From Polynucleobacter necessarius (GTDB taxonomy: Bacteria; Pseudomonadota; Gammaproteobacteria; Burkholderiales; Burkholderiaceae), in assembly GCF_900095195.1 (NCBI RefSeq), contig NZ_LT606950.1, positions 456,164 through 488,163 of the forward strand: a DNA stretch of 32,000 bases, given 5' to 3'. Numbering within the stretch: the first letter of the stretch is position 1; each line of letters starts with the position of its first letter. The notes below the pieces were generated by a model. The model worked only from the letters and a program-made list of their open reading frames with translations, searched no databases and was not told the origin of the DNA. Shown here piece after piece: positions 9,128-29,744 of this stretch. The position numbers and the translations under genes were made by a program.

Positions 9128-11119
<1,992 letters not shown>

Positions 11120-15095: not shown

Positions 15096-17146
<2,051 letters not shown>

Positions 17147-17626: not shown

Positions 17627-17716
17627 GGAGAGGTGGCAGAGTGGTTGAATGTACCGCACTCGAAATGCGGCGTAGGATAAAACCTATCGAGGGTTCGAAT
17701 CCCTCCCTCTCCGCCA
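17627..17716 (+). tRNA. tRNA-Ser (anticodon CGA)
   Basis: The sequence is GGAGAGGTGGCAGAGTGGTTGAATGTACCGCACTCGAAATGCGGCGTAGGATAAAACCTATCGAGGGTTCGAATCCCTCCCTCTCCGCCA. The acceptor stem is GGAGAGG/CCTCTCC and the anticodon stem is CCGCA/TGCGG with loop CTCGAAA. It has a long variable arm, a GTTCGAAT T-loop and an encoded CCA. Confidence 0.95.
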
Positions 17717-19679: not shown

Positions 19680-21501
19680 ATGAAAAGAGTAATTAAAGTT
19701 TGCCTATATGCATTGCTGCCTTTGGTGCTGGTCGCTCTACTTGCAGTCTGGTATATATCTACATCGATTAAGCCAGATCAATTAACCCAATTGATTGGCT
19801 CTACTGTTAAATCCGCCACAGGCCGTGACCTGAAAATTGCTGGCCCTGTGAGCCTGCGGCTCTTTCCTTCGATTGGTATTACTGCACAGCAGGTTTCTCT
19901 GAGTAATGCTCCTTGGTCAGCCAATTCAGAAATGCTTAACGTAAAGCGAATGGAGTTCGATATTGAGCTGCTGCCTTTGTTAAGAGGGGTGGTAGCGTTC
20001 AATACTATCAACTTTACCGGAGTGGATGCTTTGCTTCAAACCAACAAGGCAGGAGAGGGTAATTGGAATTTTGATTCTTCGCAAACGTCGAATCTAGGTC
20101 CAGCCATTGCTTCACAATCTGTTGACAGCGCAACTTCTGCTCAAACGGATTCATTGCGTATTCAGAACATCAATGTGGCGGATGCAAGAATTCAATACCA
20201 TGCCTATGGATCTTCTCCCAAGCTGTTTCAAGCCTCTAGCTGTCCTTATCTGGCGGAAGTAATAAAAACAGTATTTCGGGGCAAGTCCAGTATGAAAACT
20301 ATCAGTTAGGTATTAAAGCGAAAACGGGCAATCTACAAGAGATTTTGAATCAATGGGATGTGCGTCCTGTCAAAATGCCTGTCCAACTCAATCTCTCTGT
20401 GAATGGAAAGGTTTTGCAGGTTGATGGAGAGACTGATAAAAGGCCAAACATTGAGCCAAGCTTTAGCCTGCAGATACAGTCAAAATCGTTTGAATTTGCA
20501 CCCTTGGCAGGGTCGGCTGTGATTGCGGCATCAAGCCCCTCTAATAAGTCCAGCTCAGTAGCAATACCATCATCAGTAAATTTTTCTTTAGCGATGACGT
20601 GCTGCCGTTTGAAGTAATGCCTCAAGCAAAGGGTACGCTATCTGTTGATATAGATGAGCTGGGTATCTCAGGGCAATTACCAGTTACGGGCTTAAAAGGC
20701 AAATTTGTATTTAATGGCTCAAATATTGGTGTGAGCGCCCTCAGGTTTGGGGTTGGCAATAAAGGTGCTGTCGAGATTCAAGAAAATCTCTCAGAATTGC
20801 AAAGTGCCAATTCGACAGTATCGCTAAAAGGCATTGCCCAGGGATTTACTCTGGAACAGCTGATGGACATCCTGGGTTCGTCGGCAAAAGTCAAAGGAGG
20901 GGCCACTGAAATTGCATTGAACTTGCGTAGCTCTGGCATCTCATTGCATCAATTGCCAGGAAAAGCAAATGGAGCAGTGCGAATTGCGATTGCCGAAGGC
21001 GTATTGGATGCAAGCATTGTGAATGCAGGTGGCGATTTATTGAGTACGGTTGTGAATGCCGTTAATCCGATGCGAAAACGAGCTGACCAAACGACTTTGG
21101 AGTGTGCGGTAGCCTATTTACCGTTGAATAACGGCGAAATTATTTTGAATAATTCATTTGGCGTAGTTCACTGATCGTCTGAATATGACGATGTCAGGCT
21201 CGGTTGACTTAAAAACAGAATTTCTCAATATTAAGATCGACCTAAGAGTCGGTCGGGTTTAACAACGGGCGTCAATCTTGGTGGTTTAGTGCAGTTGTAG
21301 GGAACCTTAATGAACCCACAGGTAGGACTTAACAAAGAGGGTGTCGTCAATAGTGCCGTATCGATTGGATTGGGAATATTGACGGGCGGTGCAACTGTTT
21401 TAGCTGAAAACGCGAAGTCGTTGGCGACCAAGAATACGGTTCAGCCTTGTAAAACCGCACTGCACTCTTGGTCGGATATCTATCCTGGTGTAAAGAATTA
21501 G
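19680..21501 (+). pseudogene. asmA: AsmA-family outer-membrane biogenesis protein, multiply frameshifted
   Basis: An N-terminal anchor and AsmA domain occupy frame 0 (MKRVIKVCLYALLPLVLVALLAVWYIS...LKIAGPVSLRLFPSIGITAQQVSLSN). Homology then hops frames near 20230, near 20580 (an aaatttttc run), near 21170 and near 21255. An in-frame TAG sits at 21298-21300 (LVQL*GTLMNPQV). The AsmA C-terminal region is recognisable (CAVAYLPLNNGEIILNN...). Confidence 0.85.
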
Positions 21502-22539: not shown

Positions 22540-23188
22540 ATGGTGCTGCTGGTACGGTGCTTTACTGGCGCGGCATATATTGGGACTAGTAGCTACGTCA
22601 TGATGACAAATTCTGAGTTTCCCGCAAAGTCTGTTGGGGAATTTATAGCGTTAGCTAAAGCGAATCCAGATGCCTATAACTATGCAAGCGCTGGAAATGG
22701 TAGTGCCTCGCATCTAGCGATGGCCTATTTCGATAGCATGGCTGGAATTCAGCTAGTGCACATAACCCACCAAAGGGGCTGGCGATGCAATTGCCGAGCT
22801 CTTAGCTGGTCGCGCTCAAGCTGTGATTGCGGCCAATGTTGCGGCACTGCCTTTTGCCAATGACCCAAGAGTTCGCTTTTTAGGAGTTTCCTCCGAGAAG
22901 CCTTCACCTTTTGTTCCTGGCGTTCCACCAATTGGTAATACCGTGAAGGGGTATGTTTTTGATAGTTGGTTCGGTCTTTTGGCCCCTGCTGGCACGCCTA
23001 TTTCTGTGATCGGCAAAATGTAGTCCGAAATGGGTAAATTGCTTAAACAACCTGAAATCATTGAGCGTATGCGTCGCCAAGGGATCGAGATAGGAAATTT
23101 AACTTCTGCTGAATTCAATCAACTTTTAGTTCGGGACTATGTTCGGATGGCGAAGGTGGTGAAAGTCTCCGGTGCTAAGACGGATTAG
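22540..23188 (+). pseudogene. Bug/TctC-family solute receptor: 5'-truncated, frameshifted, with an in-frame TAG
   Basis: Homology starts mid-protein (IGTSSYVMMTNSEFPAKSVGEFIALAKANPDAYNYASAGNGSASHLAMAYFDSMAGIQLVHI) with no signal peptide or N-terminal half. A frameshift near 22770 leads to KGAGDAIAELLAGRAQAVIAANVAALPF...LLAPAGTPISVIGKM. TAG at 23021-23023 is followed in frame by SEMGKLLKQPEIIERMRRQGIEIGNLTSAEFNQLLVRDYVRMAKVVKVSGAKTD. Confidence 0.85.
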
Positions 23189-23203
23189 TTGTCAGTTAAT
23201 TCT

Positions 23204-23325
23204 ATGACCCGAATTACTGAATTACGTTTGCCTCTTGATCACGGTATAGATGATCTTGAGCTTGCTCTTCTAAAGAGATTAAGTATTCCATAGAAAGATC
23301 TAATCTCATTCAAGATCTTCAAGCG
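23204..23325 (+). pseudogene. N-terminal ~40-codon remnant of a COG2509-type FAD-dependent oxidoreductase
   Basis: MTRITELRLPLDHGIDDLELALLKRLSIP, then TAG at 23291-23293, then KDLISFKIFKRSY. This matches the conserved N-terminus of the family (ITELKLPLDH...FxIFKRSYDARKK). The remainder is deleted. Confidence 0.55.
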
Positions 23326-23829
23326 TAGCTATTCTGCGTTGAGCATACTGATTCCAATGCACGAGTTTCCAGTCATCTCTAGGATCCCATCGTTTTTGCA
23401 TACGTGCTTTTGCTTCACTTTCCTCAAGGACAATCCAAGCAATGGAGATCTTGGTTTGCGGTGGAATTCCTAATGCATCAGGATTCAACATTCTGCCACT
23501 CTGAATTTCCCGGGAAAATGGTCCAACCAGAATCACGTTAACTCCTAGAAGTAGGTTTTCTCGGGCAATATCAAGCAAACCTTGGTATTCCCAATCGCGG
23601 AGATTTTCAAGATAGTAGGGGCTATCTCGATCATTGGGTTTGGGTGATCAACTCCATGACATGAGCGCTATACGAGCCATACGCTGTGTCTTTATCCAGA
23701 AAGAAAAAGTCTTCGCTTGTCCTTTCAATGATTAGAGGGAGGGCTTTTTGACCAAGGTCGACTTACCAGTTCCTGCGTGACCAGCAAAAAGAATGAGGCG
23801 TGGGGCGGTTGGGGTAAGTTTGCAGACCA
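23306..23829 (-). pseudogene. P-loop kinase-like ATP-binding protein (AAA_33-like), frameshifted
   Basis: MVCKLTPTAPRLILFAGHAGTGKSTLVKK contains a Walker A motif. At least two frame changes follow (ALPLIIERTSEDFFFLDKDTAYGSYSAHVMELITQT / PNDRDSPYYLENLRDWEYQGLLDIARENLLLGVNVILVGPFS...). Only the last 90 codons form a track ORF. Confidence 0.6.
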
Positions 23830-23897
23830 TGTAACGCTAGTCTCGCAGAATTTCTTGGAAATTTCTTCCATTTTTTGGAAGAGACGATAATGTCGCC

Positions 23898-25811
23898 ATG
23901 GCTTTAATCGTACTTACTGATGCAAAACTGGCTTTTGGCCACGTTGATCTTCTTGCAAATACTGCATTCTCACTGGAATCTGGTGAACGTGTTGGCTTAA
24001 TCGGTCAAAATGGCACCGGTAAATCCTCTCTATTAAAAATTTTGGCTGGTATTGAAAAGATGGATGATGGTCTTTTGCAATATCAGCAGGGTCTACGTAT
24101 CTCATACGTTCCTCAGGAGCCGATTTTTGAGGCCAAAGAAACCATCTTTGAGGCAGTCTCAAAGGGTGTTGCGGAAGCAAAAGCACTCAGAGAAGAGTAT
24201 GGGGCTCTGAGCGTAGGCGATTGGGATGATGATGCTCATCACCGTTTAGATGAAGTGCAATCCAAACTTGAGGCATTGAGCGGTTGGAACTGGGAGCAAC
24301 GCGTGCATGAAACGCTGGATCGCCTCCATTTGGATGCAGACCAAAAAATTAGCAACTTATCGGGGGGTACCAAGATGCGAGTGGCATTGGCTCGTGCACT
24401 CGTCGAAATGCCTGATGTCCTGCTATTAGATGAACCAACGAACCATTTGGATTTGGATTCGATTGCGTGGCTGGAGGAGTTGTTAAAAGAATACCAAGGT
24501 TCCGTAATATTAATTACCTACGATCGTGCATTCTTGGATAACGTATGCACGCAAATCGTAGAGTTGGATCGCGGTATTTTGCGAAGTTATCCTGGAAACT
24601 TTACGCAATATGAAGTTCTCAAGGAACAAGAGCTCAATGCCGAGTCCTTGGCTAATGCGCGTGCAGATAAATTATTGGCGCAAGAAGAGGTGTGGATTCG
24701 GAAAGGCGTTGAAGCTCGTCGCACTCGCAGTGTTGCCCGTATAGCTCGCTTAGAAAAGCTGCGTGCAAGCCGAGCTGAGCGCAGAGATGCGATGGGGCAG
24801 GTGAAGATGGCGGTTTCTGCTGGAGAGCGTAGCGGCAAGATTGTTGCGGAGCTGGAGAACGTCTGCAAGTCATACGATAGACCCATTGTGAAGGATTTCA
24901 CAGCGACGATATTGCTCGGCGACAAGGTCGGGTTGTTGGGTCCGAACGGTGCTGGTAAAACCACCTTACTCAAATTAATTCTCGGAACAGTTAAGCCTGA
25001 TTCAGGTACCGCCACGATGGGAACACGTATTGAAGTGGCTTATTTTGATCAAATGCGTGAAGGCTTAAATCTCAATGCCTCGCTAGAGGATTACATTAGC
25101 CCTGGTAGCGAGTGGATTGAGATTAATGGCAATAAAAAACATGTCAAAAGTTATCTAAGTGATTTCTTATTCGCACCTGAGCGTACAAATTCTCCAATAA
25201 GCACTCTGTCTGGTGGCGAGCGCAATCGCCTGCTGCTAGCCCGCTTGTTTGCCCGACCAGCCAATGTCTTAGTGCTCGATGAGCCCACTAATGACTTAGA
25301 TATTGATACCTTAGATTTGCTGGAGCAATTATTGCAAGACTATAAAGGGACTGTTTTCTTAGTCAGTCATGACCGTTATTTCTTGGACAATGTTGTTACC
25401 AGCATCATTGCGCATGAGGGTGATGGATATTGGCGTGAGTATGAAGGTGGTTATGAGGATTGGAAGATTCAAAAAGCCCGCTCAGAGCAGATTCGTGCGA
25501 ATAAAAATACGGCTAAGCCATCAACGAAATCAGAGACAAAAGCCCCCCGCACCCGAATCGAAAGCGGCCCCTAAAGGTAATGTGCAAAAGCTTAATGGCA
25601 AAGAGCGGCAAGAATTGGAATCGTTGCCTCAGCAAATAGAGGAATTGAAGTCTGAGCAGGCTGATATTGGAATTGAAATGAGTAATCCCGATCTATACAA
25701 GAATGATCGGGAATTAGCAGCGAGTATGCAGGCGCGCTTAGCGAAGTTACTGTTCAGTTAGAGCAAAAACTGCAACGCTGGGAGCAGCTTTTAAGCCGCT
25801 CCGAATCCTAA
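23898..25811 (+). pseudogene. uup: ABC-F ATPase Uup with two frameshifts in the C-terminal coiled-coil region
   Basis: Two ABC cassettes are present (GQNGTGKSSLLK / LSGGTKMRVALARAL / LLLDEPTNHLD; GPNGAGKTTLLK / LSGGERNRLLLARL / LVLDEPTNDLD). Frame 0 holds up to the C6 run 25543-25548. Frame 1 then reads KPPAPESKAAPKGNVQKLNGKERQELESLPQQIEELKSEQADI...MQARLA. After about 25741-25745, frame 0 resumes with EVTVQLEQKLQRWEQLLSRSES, ending at TAA 25809-25811. Confidence 0.85.
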
Positions 25812-25818
25812 GGGTTGC

Positions 25819-26138
25819 TTATTCCCCGCGCTTGAGGCGGGCACGTAACCCTGCTATCTCATCGAGTAGATCCAGCGCTAAAGCGACTCCGGGAACATTC
25901 AACTCGAGATCATGGGTTAAGTGAGCGGCCGTCTTGGCGCGTCTTAATGAATCGCCGCCAAAGCGCCATTTTCTGGAGAAGAGCCAGAGGGGCTAAGGAC
26001 TCCCTCGGTTACCCAAGACATAATTAATTCTTCCGGTGTACGGGATGCATGAGAAAGCTCCACAATGCTCATATGCACTTCATTCTCAACGACGCTTCCC
26101 TCAATCCAAGTAATGTTGGTGGTATTGATATTTGTCAT
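25819..26138 (-). pseudogene. cbpM: Chaperone-modulator CbpM (MerR-like), frameshifted
   Basis: The frame MTNINTTNITWIEGSVVENEVHMSIVELSHASRTPEELIMSWVTEGVLSPSGSSPEN breaks at about 25965. The conserved tail WRFGGDSLRRAKTAAHLTHDLELNVPGVALALDLLDEIAGLRARLKRGE lies in the adjacent frame and ends at TAA 25819-25821. Confidence 0.8.
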
Positions 26139-26142
26139 GGCA

Positions 26143-26615
26143 TCATCCCTTCAAATGCGTTCTTGGGTTGAAATCAAATGCTTTCTCAAATTGCTGGTAT
26201 GCCTCTTTAAGTGCATCGGTATCCGCTGGAGGTAGGGTGATAGTCGGAACTACAAAGAGGTCACCAGATTCTGCGCTAGGAATCCCCTTGCCCTTTAAGC
26301 GCATCTTGCGTCCCGCAACAGTCCCCGCCGGAATCTTGAGTCCAAGGTAGAGCCTGAGGAGTGGGGACATTTACTGTGGTGCCCAACGCGGCTTCCCATG
26401 GCGCCAATGGAATATCGATAAAGATATCTTTACCATCCACGCGGTAAATGGGGCTTGGGTGAAATTCAATTTCTAAATACAAATCCCCGGCGGGGCCTTC
26501 GCCGATACCAGGGCCACCTTGTCCCGATAAGCGCAGATTTTGTCCAGCCTTTATTCCTTTTGGAATGCTAACGGCTAACTTGCGCTCTTGAGTGCTGACA
26601 TGACCCTGAGAATTA
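26143..26615 (-). pseudogene. cbpA: Curved-DNA-binding DnaJ homologue CbpA: J domain and N-terminal half deleted, frameshifted
   Basis: Only the C-terminal substrate-binding region is present: GNSQGHVSTQERKLAVSIPKGIKAGQNLRLSGQGGPGIGEGPAGDLYLEIEFHPSPIYRVDGKDIFIDIPLAPWEAALGTTVNVPTP. After a frameshift near 26350 it continues LKIPAGTVAGRKMRLKGKGIPSAESGDLFVVPTITLPP...FDFNPRTHLKG. Homology begins abruptly at about 26615. Confidence 0.85.
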
Positions 26616-27803
26616 CCGGTTTGGCATACTTATAGACTTCCATTAAAGGACCGGTGCCTCCTTTCATTGAGGAGCCTAGTGATTTTTCAAAAATATTTGC
26701 AAGGCCGCCAATTTGGTTTCCAGGGCTAACTTGGCCGTTAATTTGCACATCTCGACCAACCGAATATTCATCTTTCCACCAACGAATACGTTTGATGAGC
26801 TTTTCACCAATCTCCTTGCTTGCTGCGCGACGGGTGAGGGGTGTTCTACACCATAAATTTCTGGGGTTTCAGACAAGATGCCAGTGCCACCATGACGAGA
26901 CAAGATATCAATCGCAGCGCCTAATGCTGGGTTTGCAGTGATAGAAGAGAAGCCATCGGAACCACCACATTGCAAGCCGACAGTGAGATGGCTTGCTGAT
27001 ACCGTTTGGCGTTTAGCCTTATTTGCTTCTGGCAGTAGCGCTTTCACCGCTTCAATTCTAGCCTCAATGGTCTTGCGGGTACCGCCTGATTCTTGCATGA
27101 TGAAGGTGTGCAAGGTAGAGCCTTCCTTTAGATCTTCCTGCTCCATTAACCCTTTCAACTGATTGCGCTCACATCCAAGTCCTACGATTAATGCTGCGGC
27201 AAGGTTAGGATGGCGGGCATATCCTGATATCGTGCGTCGTAGTAATTCCATGGGCTCATCGCTCATTTCCATGCCACAACCAATACTATGGCTGAAAGCG
27301 ACAACGCCATCCACATTCGGAAAATCTTTTAAGCGTTCCGCAGTGAAATATTCTGCAATTTTGTTTACTACAGTGGCAGAGCAGTTGACGGTCGATAAAA
27401 TTCCAATAAAGTTTCTTGTGCCAACCTTGCCATTTGGTCGAACATATACCTAGCGAAAACTTTACGAGCCGCAGCCAAGTGCCTGCTGGCTACAAAATTG
27501 CCGCCAAAAAGATACTCAAAGGTGAGCCAATTCTCAAATACAACGTCACTGTTGGATTTGCCAATACCGACATTGGGTCCGGCACAATGGTGCACAGCCA
27601 CAATACAGAATTTCGGGAATTTGATCGCGATTATGCGCATGCCAGCGAATACAAACCCACTCAAATGCTTCCTGAGTCTGAACGAGCCACCTTCCAAGGA
27701 TATCAGTGCCGATGCCCACATCAACACGAGCGACAACAATATTGTCATTTGGATGTAGACGAATGATCGGCCCAATAAGGCGCTTTTCAGAAATTTCAAT
27801 CAT
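26616..27803 (-). pseudogene. UxaA-family (altronate/galactarate-type) sugar-acid dehydratase: internal inversion, frameshift, 3' truncation
   Basis: The N-terminus MIEISEKRLIGPIIRLHPNDNIVVARVDVGIGTD is on the minus strand at 27803-27704. Residues IPSENFTSRSQVPAGYKIAAKKILKGEPILKYNVTVGFANTDIGSGTMVHSHNTEF...ATFQGY are encoded on the PLUS strand at 27444-27703. The minus strand resumes with VRPNGKVGTRNFIGILSTVNCSATVVNKIAEYF...VDGVVAFSHSIGCGMEM...LQCGGSDGFSSITANP. A frameshift lies at G-run 26838-26841. Homology ends at ...GGTGPLMEVYKYAKPV (about 26616). Confidence 0.85.
27444..27703. other. Inverted 260-bp segment inside the uxaA-like pseudogene, bounded by ATAT at both ends
   Basis: Reverse-complementing 27444-27703 in place yields one continuous frame: ...GIGTD-IPSENF...ATFQGY-VRPNGKVGTRN... 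The segment starts and ends with the palindromic tetranucleotide ATAT (27444-27447 and 27700-27703; GATATC at 27699-27704). Confidence 0.8.
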
Positions 27804-27828
27804 GGAACACTTTCGATATAGTAAGTTT

Positions 27829-28225
27829 TTATTCTGGTGTAGCGCCTGATTCTTAACGATGGGGCCCCACTTTGCGACTTCGGATTTGATGTATTCGCTG
27901 AGTTGGTTTGGCGTGCTTGTAATGACTTCAAAACCTTTGCTGCTGACTTGTCCTTTAATTTCTGGATTATTGAGTACGCTAATTAATTGAGAATTCAACT
28001 TATCAATAATTGCTTTTGGAGTATTGGCGGGTGCAACAATTGCATAAACTAACTCCACTTCATATTTCGGCACATATTCAGAAATTGCCGGGATTTCAGG
28101 TGCATTGGGTGATCTTTTGAGGCTAGTGATTCCGAGTGGAATTAATTTTCCGTTGGGACATATGGAAGTGCCGCTGGCGCACCAACGAGAGCGGTCTCAA
28201 TTTGTCCGCCCAGTACATCGGTTGT
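27829..28225 (-). pseudogene. Bug/TctC-family solute receptor remnant: N-terminal half deleted, two frameshifts
   Basis: Homology starts at TDVLGGQIETALVGAPAALPYVP directly downstream of an AAGGAG-like RBS. A 1-nt deletion near 28150 leads to NGKLIPLGITSLKRSPNAPEIPAISEYVPKYEVELVYAIVAPANTPKAIIDKLN...AKWGPIVK. The natural end, ESGATPE with TAA at 27829-27831, is out of frame. The open frame therefore runs on into the uxaA start. Confidence 0.8.
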
Positions 28226-28281: not shown

Positions 28282-28800
28282 ATGAAAATTACTCAAGCAA
28301 CTTTTTTCCTGTATCGATACCGTTGATCGAGCCCATCAAAATGGCTAATGATGTAGTGATTGATATAAAACAGTATTGCTGAGCTTGCGCGATGAGCAGG
28401 GGCGTATTGGGCGGGTGGCGTCAATTGCCCCAATGATGACTGGTGAGACCCTCGATAGTTTGTGCGCAAGTTTAGGGTACCTCTTGGATAAGGTGCGCAA
28501 ATTCGAGTGGAATGATCCGCGCCATTTCTCAATCCAATTTAATACCGTTCTGTATGGTAACCATTCAGCAAAATCTTGTCTTGAAATGGCATTACTAGAT
28601 CTATACACACAACGTGAATCCGTGCCATTGTGGAAGTATCTTCGCACCCTTAATCCGAATGTCAATAACCTAGAGTTAAAAGCCATCCCCATTCTTCGAA
28701 TGTTGGGAGGCAGTCTTGAAAAGGAGTTGGAGGATGCAAAAATATTTCGGGAGTCAGGGTTTAAGCATTGGAAAATAAAGATCGGGTCCATTATCCCATC
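28282..28800 (+). pseudogene. Mandelate racemase/muconate lactonizing enzyme (enolase superfamily): frameshifted, 3'-truncated
   Basis: ATG 28282 opens MKITQATFFLYR, and the frame breaks within about 20 codons. ORF 28376..28813 then carries the MR_MLE N-domain (DEQGRIGRVASIAPMMTGETLDS...NHSAKSCLEMALLDLYTQRESVPLWKYL) and the first barrel strand (GFKHWKIKIG). Homology stops there, so about 60 percent of the protein is missing. Confidence 0.75.
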
Positions 28801-28840
28801 ATTAGTGATATAAAAACTGCAGATTACTGGGGGAGACTAT

Positions 28841-29744
28841 ATGTTTAAAACTATATCTAAAAATAGAGTGTTGAGATCGGTATTCAGCACGGTGATTGGG
28901 GTGGCATTCTCCACCTCCGTCTTTGCGGCCTATCCTGACAAACCAATCAAAATGCTGATTGGTTATGCCCCAGGCAGTTCAACAGATATTGTGGGTCGCA
29001 TGATTGCAAATGATCTCAGTATGGTTTTGAAGCAGCCAATTGTTGTCGAAAATCGTGGTGGTGCGGCGGGTAGCTTGGCTGCTGATGCGGTCGCTAAAAG
29101 TGCGCCAGATGGTTACACCATTCTTTTTGCTCAAAATGGACTTGCAATCAATGTGGCCGCTAATCCGAAGTTACCTTTTAACGGTCAAAAGGATCTCGTG
29201 CCTGTTGTTGGTGTTGCAGCGACTCCGCATATATTGATTGTGAATAACAATTCACCTGCAAAGACTGTGGCTGTTATTCCAGAGTCGCCTCGGCATCAAG
29301 CTCACCAACATTCCGTACAAAGGCACTGGTCCAGCGTTAACCGACCTGTTGGGCGGGCAAGTCGACCTCCTTTGCGACCAAACTACACAAACTATCCATT
29401 ACATCAAGGATGGCCGCGTAAAAACCTATGGGACAACCACTCTCAAACGTTTACCAGCCATTCCGAACTTACCAACTCTGAACGAGCAGGGCCTCAAAGG
29501 CTTTGAGATAAAAGTTTGGCATGGTGTTTACACACCAAAAGGTGTTCCAAAACCTATCTTGGATAAAATTAATGCAGCTTTGAAGAAGGCATTGAATTCT
29601 CCTGAAGTAAAGAAACGTTTAGATGATTCGAATATTGATATTGTTCCAGCAAGCAAAATGACGCCCAAGGGACTTCAAGATCATCTTGACTCTGAAATCA
29701 ACGTCTGGGGTCCAGTCATTCGTAAAGCCAATATTCCAGACTAA
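28841..29744 (+). pseudogene. Bug/TctC-family solute receptor with an internal out-of-frame deletion
   Basis: GGGGGAG RBS, a signal peptide and the N-domain are intact (AYPDKPIKMLIGYAPGSSTDIVGRMIAN...PHILIVNNNSPAKTV). Near 29275-29290 about 30 conserved codons are missing (the AKANPGxxNYxSxGxGSxxHL block). The rest, IKLTNIPYKGTGPALTDLLGGQVDLLCDQTTQTIHYIKDGRVK...WGPVIRKANIPD, is in another frame (ORF 29349..29744). Confidence 0.9.

Follow-up and report, generated by a model that had tools for sequence, protein, structure and literature searches.

How did a single UxaA-family gene come to be encoded on alternating DNA strands, and did the change have any consequence for the cell? The locus lies in a window of 32,000 nucleotides, the whole stretch of DNA analysed here, on a contig of 1,550,368 bp. 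The window has a G+C content of ~46%, and its best protein matches are all from Polynucleobacter. Polynucleobacter necessarius, an obligate endosymbiont of Euplotes, has a genome of ~1.56 Mb, a G+C content of 45.6%, and many pseudogenes (PMC5018217), and the genome studied here fits this reduced, pseudogene-rich type. The reading that we regard as probable is that a real, recent, and functionally inert inversion of ~256 bp took place in a UxaA/GarD pseudogene, as a single illegitimate and non-site-specific rearrangement after the death of the gene.

Many genes of the window are truncated or split (spans 1066–2091, 9128–10801, 19680–21174, 27804–28222, 28283–28813, and 28841–29506). TctA covers profile positions 44–250 of 423, and the H+-pyrophosphatase covers positions 1–442 of 645. 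AsmA is split into two ORFs, and there are two TctC fragments and a remnant that matches an MR_MLE-family gene of the relative L082. The ABC-F (Uup-like) ORF at 23898–25574 encodes 558 aa, whereas the intact gene of the sister lineage introduced below encodes 637 aa, and the window copy seems either to have become a pseudogene recently or to be a truncated gene. This pseudogene density is typical of a recently host-restricted symbiont.

The arrangement of the UxaA-family gene was determined by a tblastn search of the window with P0002, a full-length 515-aa Polynucleobacter UxaA-family protein. Residues 1–35 match positions 27803–27699 on the minus strand with 94% identity. Residues 35–120, which include the GTMVHSHN motif, match positions 27446–27703 on the plus strand with 95% identity (E=7e-48). 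Residues 120–321 match positions 27446–26841 on the minus strand with 95% identity, and residues 323–397 match positions 26838–26614 of the same strand in another frame. A sequence-only reading of the window had proposed that parts of the protein alternate between the strands, and the minus/plus/minus order of the matches is the one that it predicted. The gene can be divided into codons 1–34 (27704–27803, minus strand; start ATG at 27803–27801; translation MIEISEKRLIGPIIRLHPNDNIVVARVDVGIGT), an inverted segment with codons ~34–120 (27444–27703, plus strand, opposite to the rest of the gene), codons 121–321 (26841–27443, minus strand; the GD_AH_second domain and the start of GD_AH_C, as identified by tblastn and Pfam), and codons 323–397 in the shifted frame (26614–26838, minus strand).

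The gene sense is restored by joining the reverse complement of 27704–27803, the segment 27444–27703 as it stands, and the reverse complement of the sequence from 27443 downwards. The joined reading, MIEIS...GIGTDIPSENF...ATFQGYVRPNGKVGTRN, is stop-free; it is also spelled MIEISEKRLIGPIIRLHPNDNIVVARVDVGIGTDIPSENF...GTMVHSHNTEF...ATFQGYVRPNGKVGTRNFIG..., with the first stop well downstream. The alignment of the restored DNA to that of the orthologous locus L001 is gapless over both junctions, and therefore no base was gained or lost at either of them. The earlier claim that the flip restores the frame exactly is borne out. The restored reading of 320 aa contains PF04295 (GD_AH_second, E=3e-46) and PF20629 (GD_AH_C, E=7e-20), and matches a Polynucleobacter "altronate dehydratase family protein" over 100% of its length with 95% identity. 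Such proteins of free-living Polynucleobacter are 515 aa long. The gene thereby fits the UxaA/GarD (altronate / D-galactarate dehydratase) family, which is marked by these two domains and an N-terminal SAF-like region in collinear order.

Both ends of the segment carry ATAT (27444–27447 and 27700–27703), the right one within GATATC, as had been noticed from the letters alone. The breakpoints are ambiguous inside these two 4-mers, so that 252–260 bp were moved; under the one-step model described below the moved length is 256 bp (27448–27703). The inversion also created the plus-strand ORF of 116 aa at 27416–27766 that the sequence-only reading had listed as unexplained. The ORF overlaps minus-strand ORFs and consists of the inverted UxaA piece and antisense read-through of the flanks. 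No protein spanning its full length was found in a collection of 5.8 billion proteins; the search returned ordinary UxaA fragments only, and the antisense-derived ends were unmatched. We regard the ORF as spurious.

The gene is not an intact single ORF of ~515 codons. In addition to the inversion, it carries a 1-bp frameshift near 26840 and lacks codons 398–515. The frameshift is a 1-bp deletion at 26838–26841 on the minus strand, located by the change of frame between tblastn matches, where the window and the sister read GAACAC-CCCTC and an outgroup reads GAACATACCCTC. The truncation is a deletion of ~0.95 kb with its junction at 26593–26624, identified by blastn to L001 (window 26593 corresponds to L001 12137, and window 26624 to L001 11181) and by a three-way alignment. 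It removed codons 398–515, the spacer, and the 5′ part of a downstream dnaJ-like (cbpA-type) gene. The deletion fuses codon 397 of uxaA to the middle of the dnaJ-like gene. Both the frameshift and the truncation are common to the non-inverted sister, and therefore both are older than the inversion, and the gene was already a pseudogene in the common ancestor of the window and the sister. The sequence-only reading was right to place the segment inside a dehydratase pseudogene, but it missed this prior death of the gene. The inversion was considered as the inactivating lesion and rejected, since the non-inverted sister has the same frameshift and truncation.

The polarity of the rearrangement was determined from 83 orthologous loci, including 80 from species-representative genomes. 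All 83 are collinear over residues 1–125, and the inverted state is therefore derived. The closest intact orthologues (L001, L082, and L083) share only ~82% nucleotide identity with the window, and we found no relative with an intact gene closer than that. A much closer relative was reached through the 90% cluster of the neighbouring ABC-F protein. This sister is represented by three contigs from independent assemblies (Logan SRR32119647, ENA ERZ27248707, and Logan SRR8208349), which are 99.97% identical among themselves and have 98–99.6% nucleotide identity to the window. Two of the three (L084 and L085) reach the uxaA remnant, and in both the segment is in the ancestral orientation, with 99.6% identity; window positions 27449–27702 match them on the strand opposite to both flanks. 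The inverted state is known from one assembly only. These comparisons show, at the level of sequence, that the inversion is younger than the death of the gene and, among the lineages compared, confined to that of the window. As the near-identical sister is unflipped, the inversion looks like a recent and harmless scar of decay rather than a switch.

The same dead locus is eroding differently in the two lineages. Independent losses in the sister took 367 bp from the uxaA remnant (window 26902–27268) and 175 bp from the upstream TctC remnant (window 27986–28159), and both stretches are absent from L084/L085. Furthermore, the sister contigs carry a block of ~5.6 kb, with the ABC-F gene and the uxaA pseudogene inside it, in reverse orientation to its flanks (window 22597–28223 corresponds to L084 7090–12127, and the flanks are L084 6715–6966 and 12442–12482). 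The window arrangement of the block is ancestral, since it is collinear with L001 and the TctC/Bug frame is unbroken across 22597. The left breakpoint of the block is at a TCA|TGA palindrome, with GTCA shared, and its junctions in the sister hold 124 bp and 315 bp that are unmatched in the window.

The two junctions of the small inversion are described here in gene sense. At the 5′ site, the sister has GGCACTG AGGT -CCTAGCG, which can also be written GGCACTGAGGT-CCTAGCG. The closest outgroups have GAAGTACC or GAAGTGCC, that is, AAGT in place of AGGT; the closest three read ..GAAGTACCTAG.., and outgroups mostly have GAAGTN (Glu-Val). The restored window has GGCACTG ATAT ACCTAGCG, and its 5′ ATAT thus reads GATATACC. 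At the 3′ site, the sister has CCAAGGATA followed by a 28-bp deletion that leaves GGATA in place, the outgroups have GGN TAT GT. with the TAT kept, and the restored window has CCAAGG ATAT GTTCGA. The 4-mer at 27444–27447, which adjoins the 3′ flank, corresponds to the ancestral GGATATGTT site (Gly-Tyr-Val). The 4-mer at 27700–27703, which adjoins the 5′ flank, is derived from an ancestral AGGT, a state inferred from one sister, itself with a 1-bp deletion there, and from outgroups of ~82% identity.

The window differs from the ancestral AGGT in two adjacent bases. Outside the junctions, the window and the sister differ by 3 SNPs and one 1-bp indel in ~685 aligned bases, and the expected probability of two independent substitutions in the 5′ 4-mer is ~1e-4. 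Since the sister has AGGT and the outgroups have AAGT, the 5′ ATAT of the window is derived rather than pre-existing microhomology. The 3′-site ATAT is ancestral and the 5′-site ATAT looks like a product of the event, and the 4-bp terminal repeat is better read as a footprint of the inversion than as its cause. Before the event, the breakpoints would have shared next to no homology. The ancestral 4-mers, AGGT at the 5′ site and ATAT at the 3′ site, agree only in their outer A and T and do not form one short inverted repeat common to both ends. The segment is not flanked by any inverted repeat of more than 4 bp, and the best inverted pairs (10–12 nt) lie away from the breakpoints. No notable hairpins were detected at the junctions (z = 0.9 and -1.25), and no Rfam family was matched there; the single Rfam match in the window is a tRNA at 17627–17713.

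Three flip models were compared over 450 bp, starting from a reconstructed ancestral sequence whose 5′ site has AGGT. The flip of the interior alone gives 2 mismatches to the window, and the flip of the interior together with both 4-mers also gives 2. Model B, in which both junction 4-mers come from the 3′ ATAT and AGGT is lost, gives 0 mismatches in 450 bp. In this model a single event turns the interior into its exact reverse complement and gives the two flanking motifs the same sequence, as expected for a template switch; imperfect inverted-repeat arms of 7–9 bp or more, as in documented switches, are absent, and the arms of the inferred ancestor agree at 2 of 4 positions. An unscarred ancestral allele is expected to have GAGGTACC at the 5′ site if the 4-mer was copied in one step, and an allele in the ancestral orientation is expected to have GATATACC there if the microhomology existed beforehand.

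Two routes could have copied both new junction 4-mers from the 3′-site ATAT, with the loss of AGGT, in one step. The first is a replicative template switch with a return point offset by 4 nt: the nascent strand would leave after GGCACTG, copy the complementary strand from ...GGATAT back to ACCT..., and return 4 nt "early" at ATATGTT. The other is a pair of 4-nt staggered breaks, one at each site, after which the fragment would be flipped and rejoined, and the resulting A·T / T·C / A·C / T·A heteroduplex would segregate at the next replication. Type II topoisomerases cut with a stagger of 4 nt. The two routes would fit equally well, and neither would need more than 1–2 bases of prior homology. 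In both cases, the inversion would be a by-product of relaxed selection on dead DNA, with no effect on the cell.

The non-inverted sister has its own lesions at the same two sites. At the 5′ site, a 1-bp deletion falls within the 8-bp palindrome AGGTACCT of the ancestor, and one edge of the 28-bp deletion lies inside the 3′-site ATAT. The lesions coincide with the two breakpoints of the window (window 27417–27443 and 27448; L084 ~11524 and 11775), and each coincidence has a probability of roughly 0.03 at the event density of this pseudogene. Lesions at both breakpoints are not predicted by a simple neutral accident and count against it, and they give a hint that both sites may be inherently prone to breakage or switching. 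With the 1-bp deletion, an imperfect inverted repeat, AGGTACCTAG / ATAT-CCTTG, loses its only gap, in the manner of quasipalindrome correction; this repeat is weak and no better than expected by chance. We consider it doubtful that AGGTACCT and the GGATATG located 256 bp downstream form a recurrently interacting or break-prone pair that was hit independently in both lineages. If they do, one and the same template-switch or cleavage process would act again and again on specific short motifs in decaying endosymbiont DNA, and the locus would offer a natural, base-resolved view of that process in a symbiont with a presumably reduced repair capacity.

The footprint reading has to be weighed against other origins of the inverted state. 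The sequence-only reading had attributed the inversion to microhomology or a palindrome, and the lineage of the window could already have had ATAT at both sites (GAT ATA and GGA TAT), with the 4-bp palindromic repeat mediating a clean inversion. Both ends carry ATAT today, and among random breakpoint pairs in the window, just 1.7% are expected to have an inverted repeat of at least 4 bp at the junctions. Codons 34–35 at the 5′ site also differ among members of the genus; GATATT (Asp-Ile) occurs in one distant orthologue. However, the AGGT(-) of the sister, at 99.6% identity, and the AAGT of the closest outgroups do not agree with this history, which would need two adjacent substitutions at the future breakpoint just before the event, at ~1e-4 given the 3 SNPs per ~685 bp, and we consider it improbable. 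A related history, in which the common ancestor was inverted and the sister re-inverted imprecisely, would account for the scars of the sister at both breakpoints, as the 28-bp deletion begins inside the 3′ ATAT and the 1-bp deletion is at the 5′ site. Nevertheless, the 5′ site of the sister, GAG GT-, encodes Glu-Val as in most of the closest outgroups (GAA GTN), and an imprecise flip from ATAT would recreate these codons by coincidence only. A re-inversion of the sister from a window-like state was rejected for these conserved codons, and the history as a whole is highly improbable.

The inverted state could also be an artefact of assembly, cloning, or amplification, with the true chromosome in the ancestral orientation. 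The nearest relative is non-inverted, and no second instance of the inversion was found by exact-protein look-ups of four window ORFs at 27416–27766, 26676–27314, 15824–17146, and 23898–25574, for which no encoding contig was returned, by a protein search with the junction-spanning ORF, or by two metagenome scans, which gave no matches to a 25-mer of the left inverted junction or to a clade-specific 26-mer from inside the segment. On the other hand, no junction repeat longer than 4 bp is present to mislead an assembler, the region was assembled cleanly in the sister datasets, and both junctions are reciprocal to the base, with nothing gained or lost, whereas a chimeric read would be expected to make one aberrant junction and not a precise flip in place. 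The altered 4-mer is also the kind of footprint that biological events leave. Misassembly is an unlikely source of the inversion, and we give little credence to an artefact of any of these kinds. Finally, the segment might be an intragenic inverton, a phase-variable switch driven by a programmed invertase. Intragenic invertons of similar size occur in other bacteria (bioRxiv 10.1101/2023.03.11.532203), and both orientations are present among close relatives here. Nonetheless, no pair of recombinase-recognised inverted repeats was found: the only repeat is ATAT/ATAT, which is 4 bp long and partly derived. No recombinase or transposase domain was detected in the 20 window ORFs scanned, which are nearly all of those of at least 150 aa. 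The absence of both a longer repeat and a recombinase in these ORFs argues against a programmed inverton. The orientations are fixed in lineages ~1–2% apart and were not seen within one population, and the frameshift and the loss of the last 118 codons are present in both orientations. Because the gene is non-functional either way, flipping would switch nothing, and an inverton is scarcely credible.

The one-step, illegitimate inversion of an already dead gene remains the preferred reading, and the inversion is without functional consequence for the organism. It belongs to a class of mutations that annotation pipelines miss and whose only visible sign is an unusual antisense ORF within a pseudogene. 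As the ancestral allele survives in the sister, the direction of the event can be established and each base of its junctions can be read. Terminal "microhomology" may be a product of a rearrangement rather than its cause, which calls for caution when a mechanism is inferred from a single genome.

Template-switch mutations between short imperfect inverted repeats homogenise the arms and invert the spacer (PMC8604942), and have been described by a four-point template-switch model (PMC5453318). The inversion is similar to these, and to Ripley-type quasipalindrome correction, in that the interior became its exact reverse complement, the two motifs were made identical (AGGT to ATAT), and a cluster of adjacent "substitutions" lies exactly at a junction. 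However, the documented spacer inversions have arms of at least 9 bp and spacers of a few bp (PMC8604942), whereas the arms of this inversion do not exceed 4 bp and agreed at only 2 of 4 positions in the inferred ancestor, the spacer is ~252 bp, and no longer imperfect repeat lends support.

The inversion also resembles illegitimate recombination that needs no short homology, in which DNA is broken with 4-nt staggered ends and rejoined by subunit exchange of type II topoisomerases or gyrase: it is conservative, without net gain or loss, and the segregation of a heteroduplex in the 4-bp overlap would leave one daughter with ATAT at both junctions, as in model B. The likeness is one of junction geometry, and a role of such an enzyme, or of its cleavage preference, is hypothetical here. 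As in intragenic invertons, a few hundred coding bp occur in either orientation among close relatives. Invertons use inverted repeats that are recognised by a recombinase, for example of 11 bp in the validated thiC case (bioRxiv 10.1101/2023.03.11.532203), whereas the segment studied here has no recognisable repeat arms, lies in a pseudogene, and is not accompanied by an invertase among the window ORFs scanned.

The setting matches the decay of endosymbiont genomes (PMC5018217), with a 1.55-Mb contig, ~46% G+C, frameshifted, truncated, and split genes, and independent deletions in the sister. Usual accounts of such decay describe point mutations, frameshifts, and deletions, whereas reports of a micro-inversion resolved to the base and polarised by a sister allele are rare, and our literature search found no bacterial description of one. 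The micro-inversion is an addition to the forms of pseudogene decay known from Polynucleobacter-type endosymbionts. It is an event of an ordinary kind, illegitimate recombination or template switching in decaying DNA, that is unusually well resolved.
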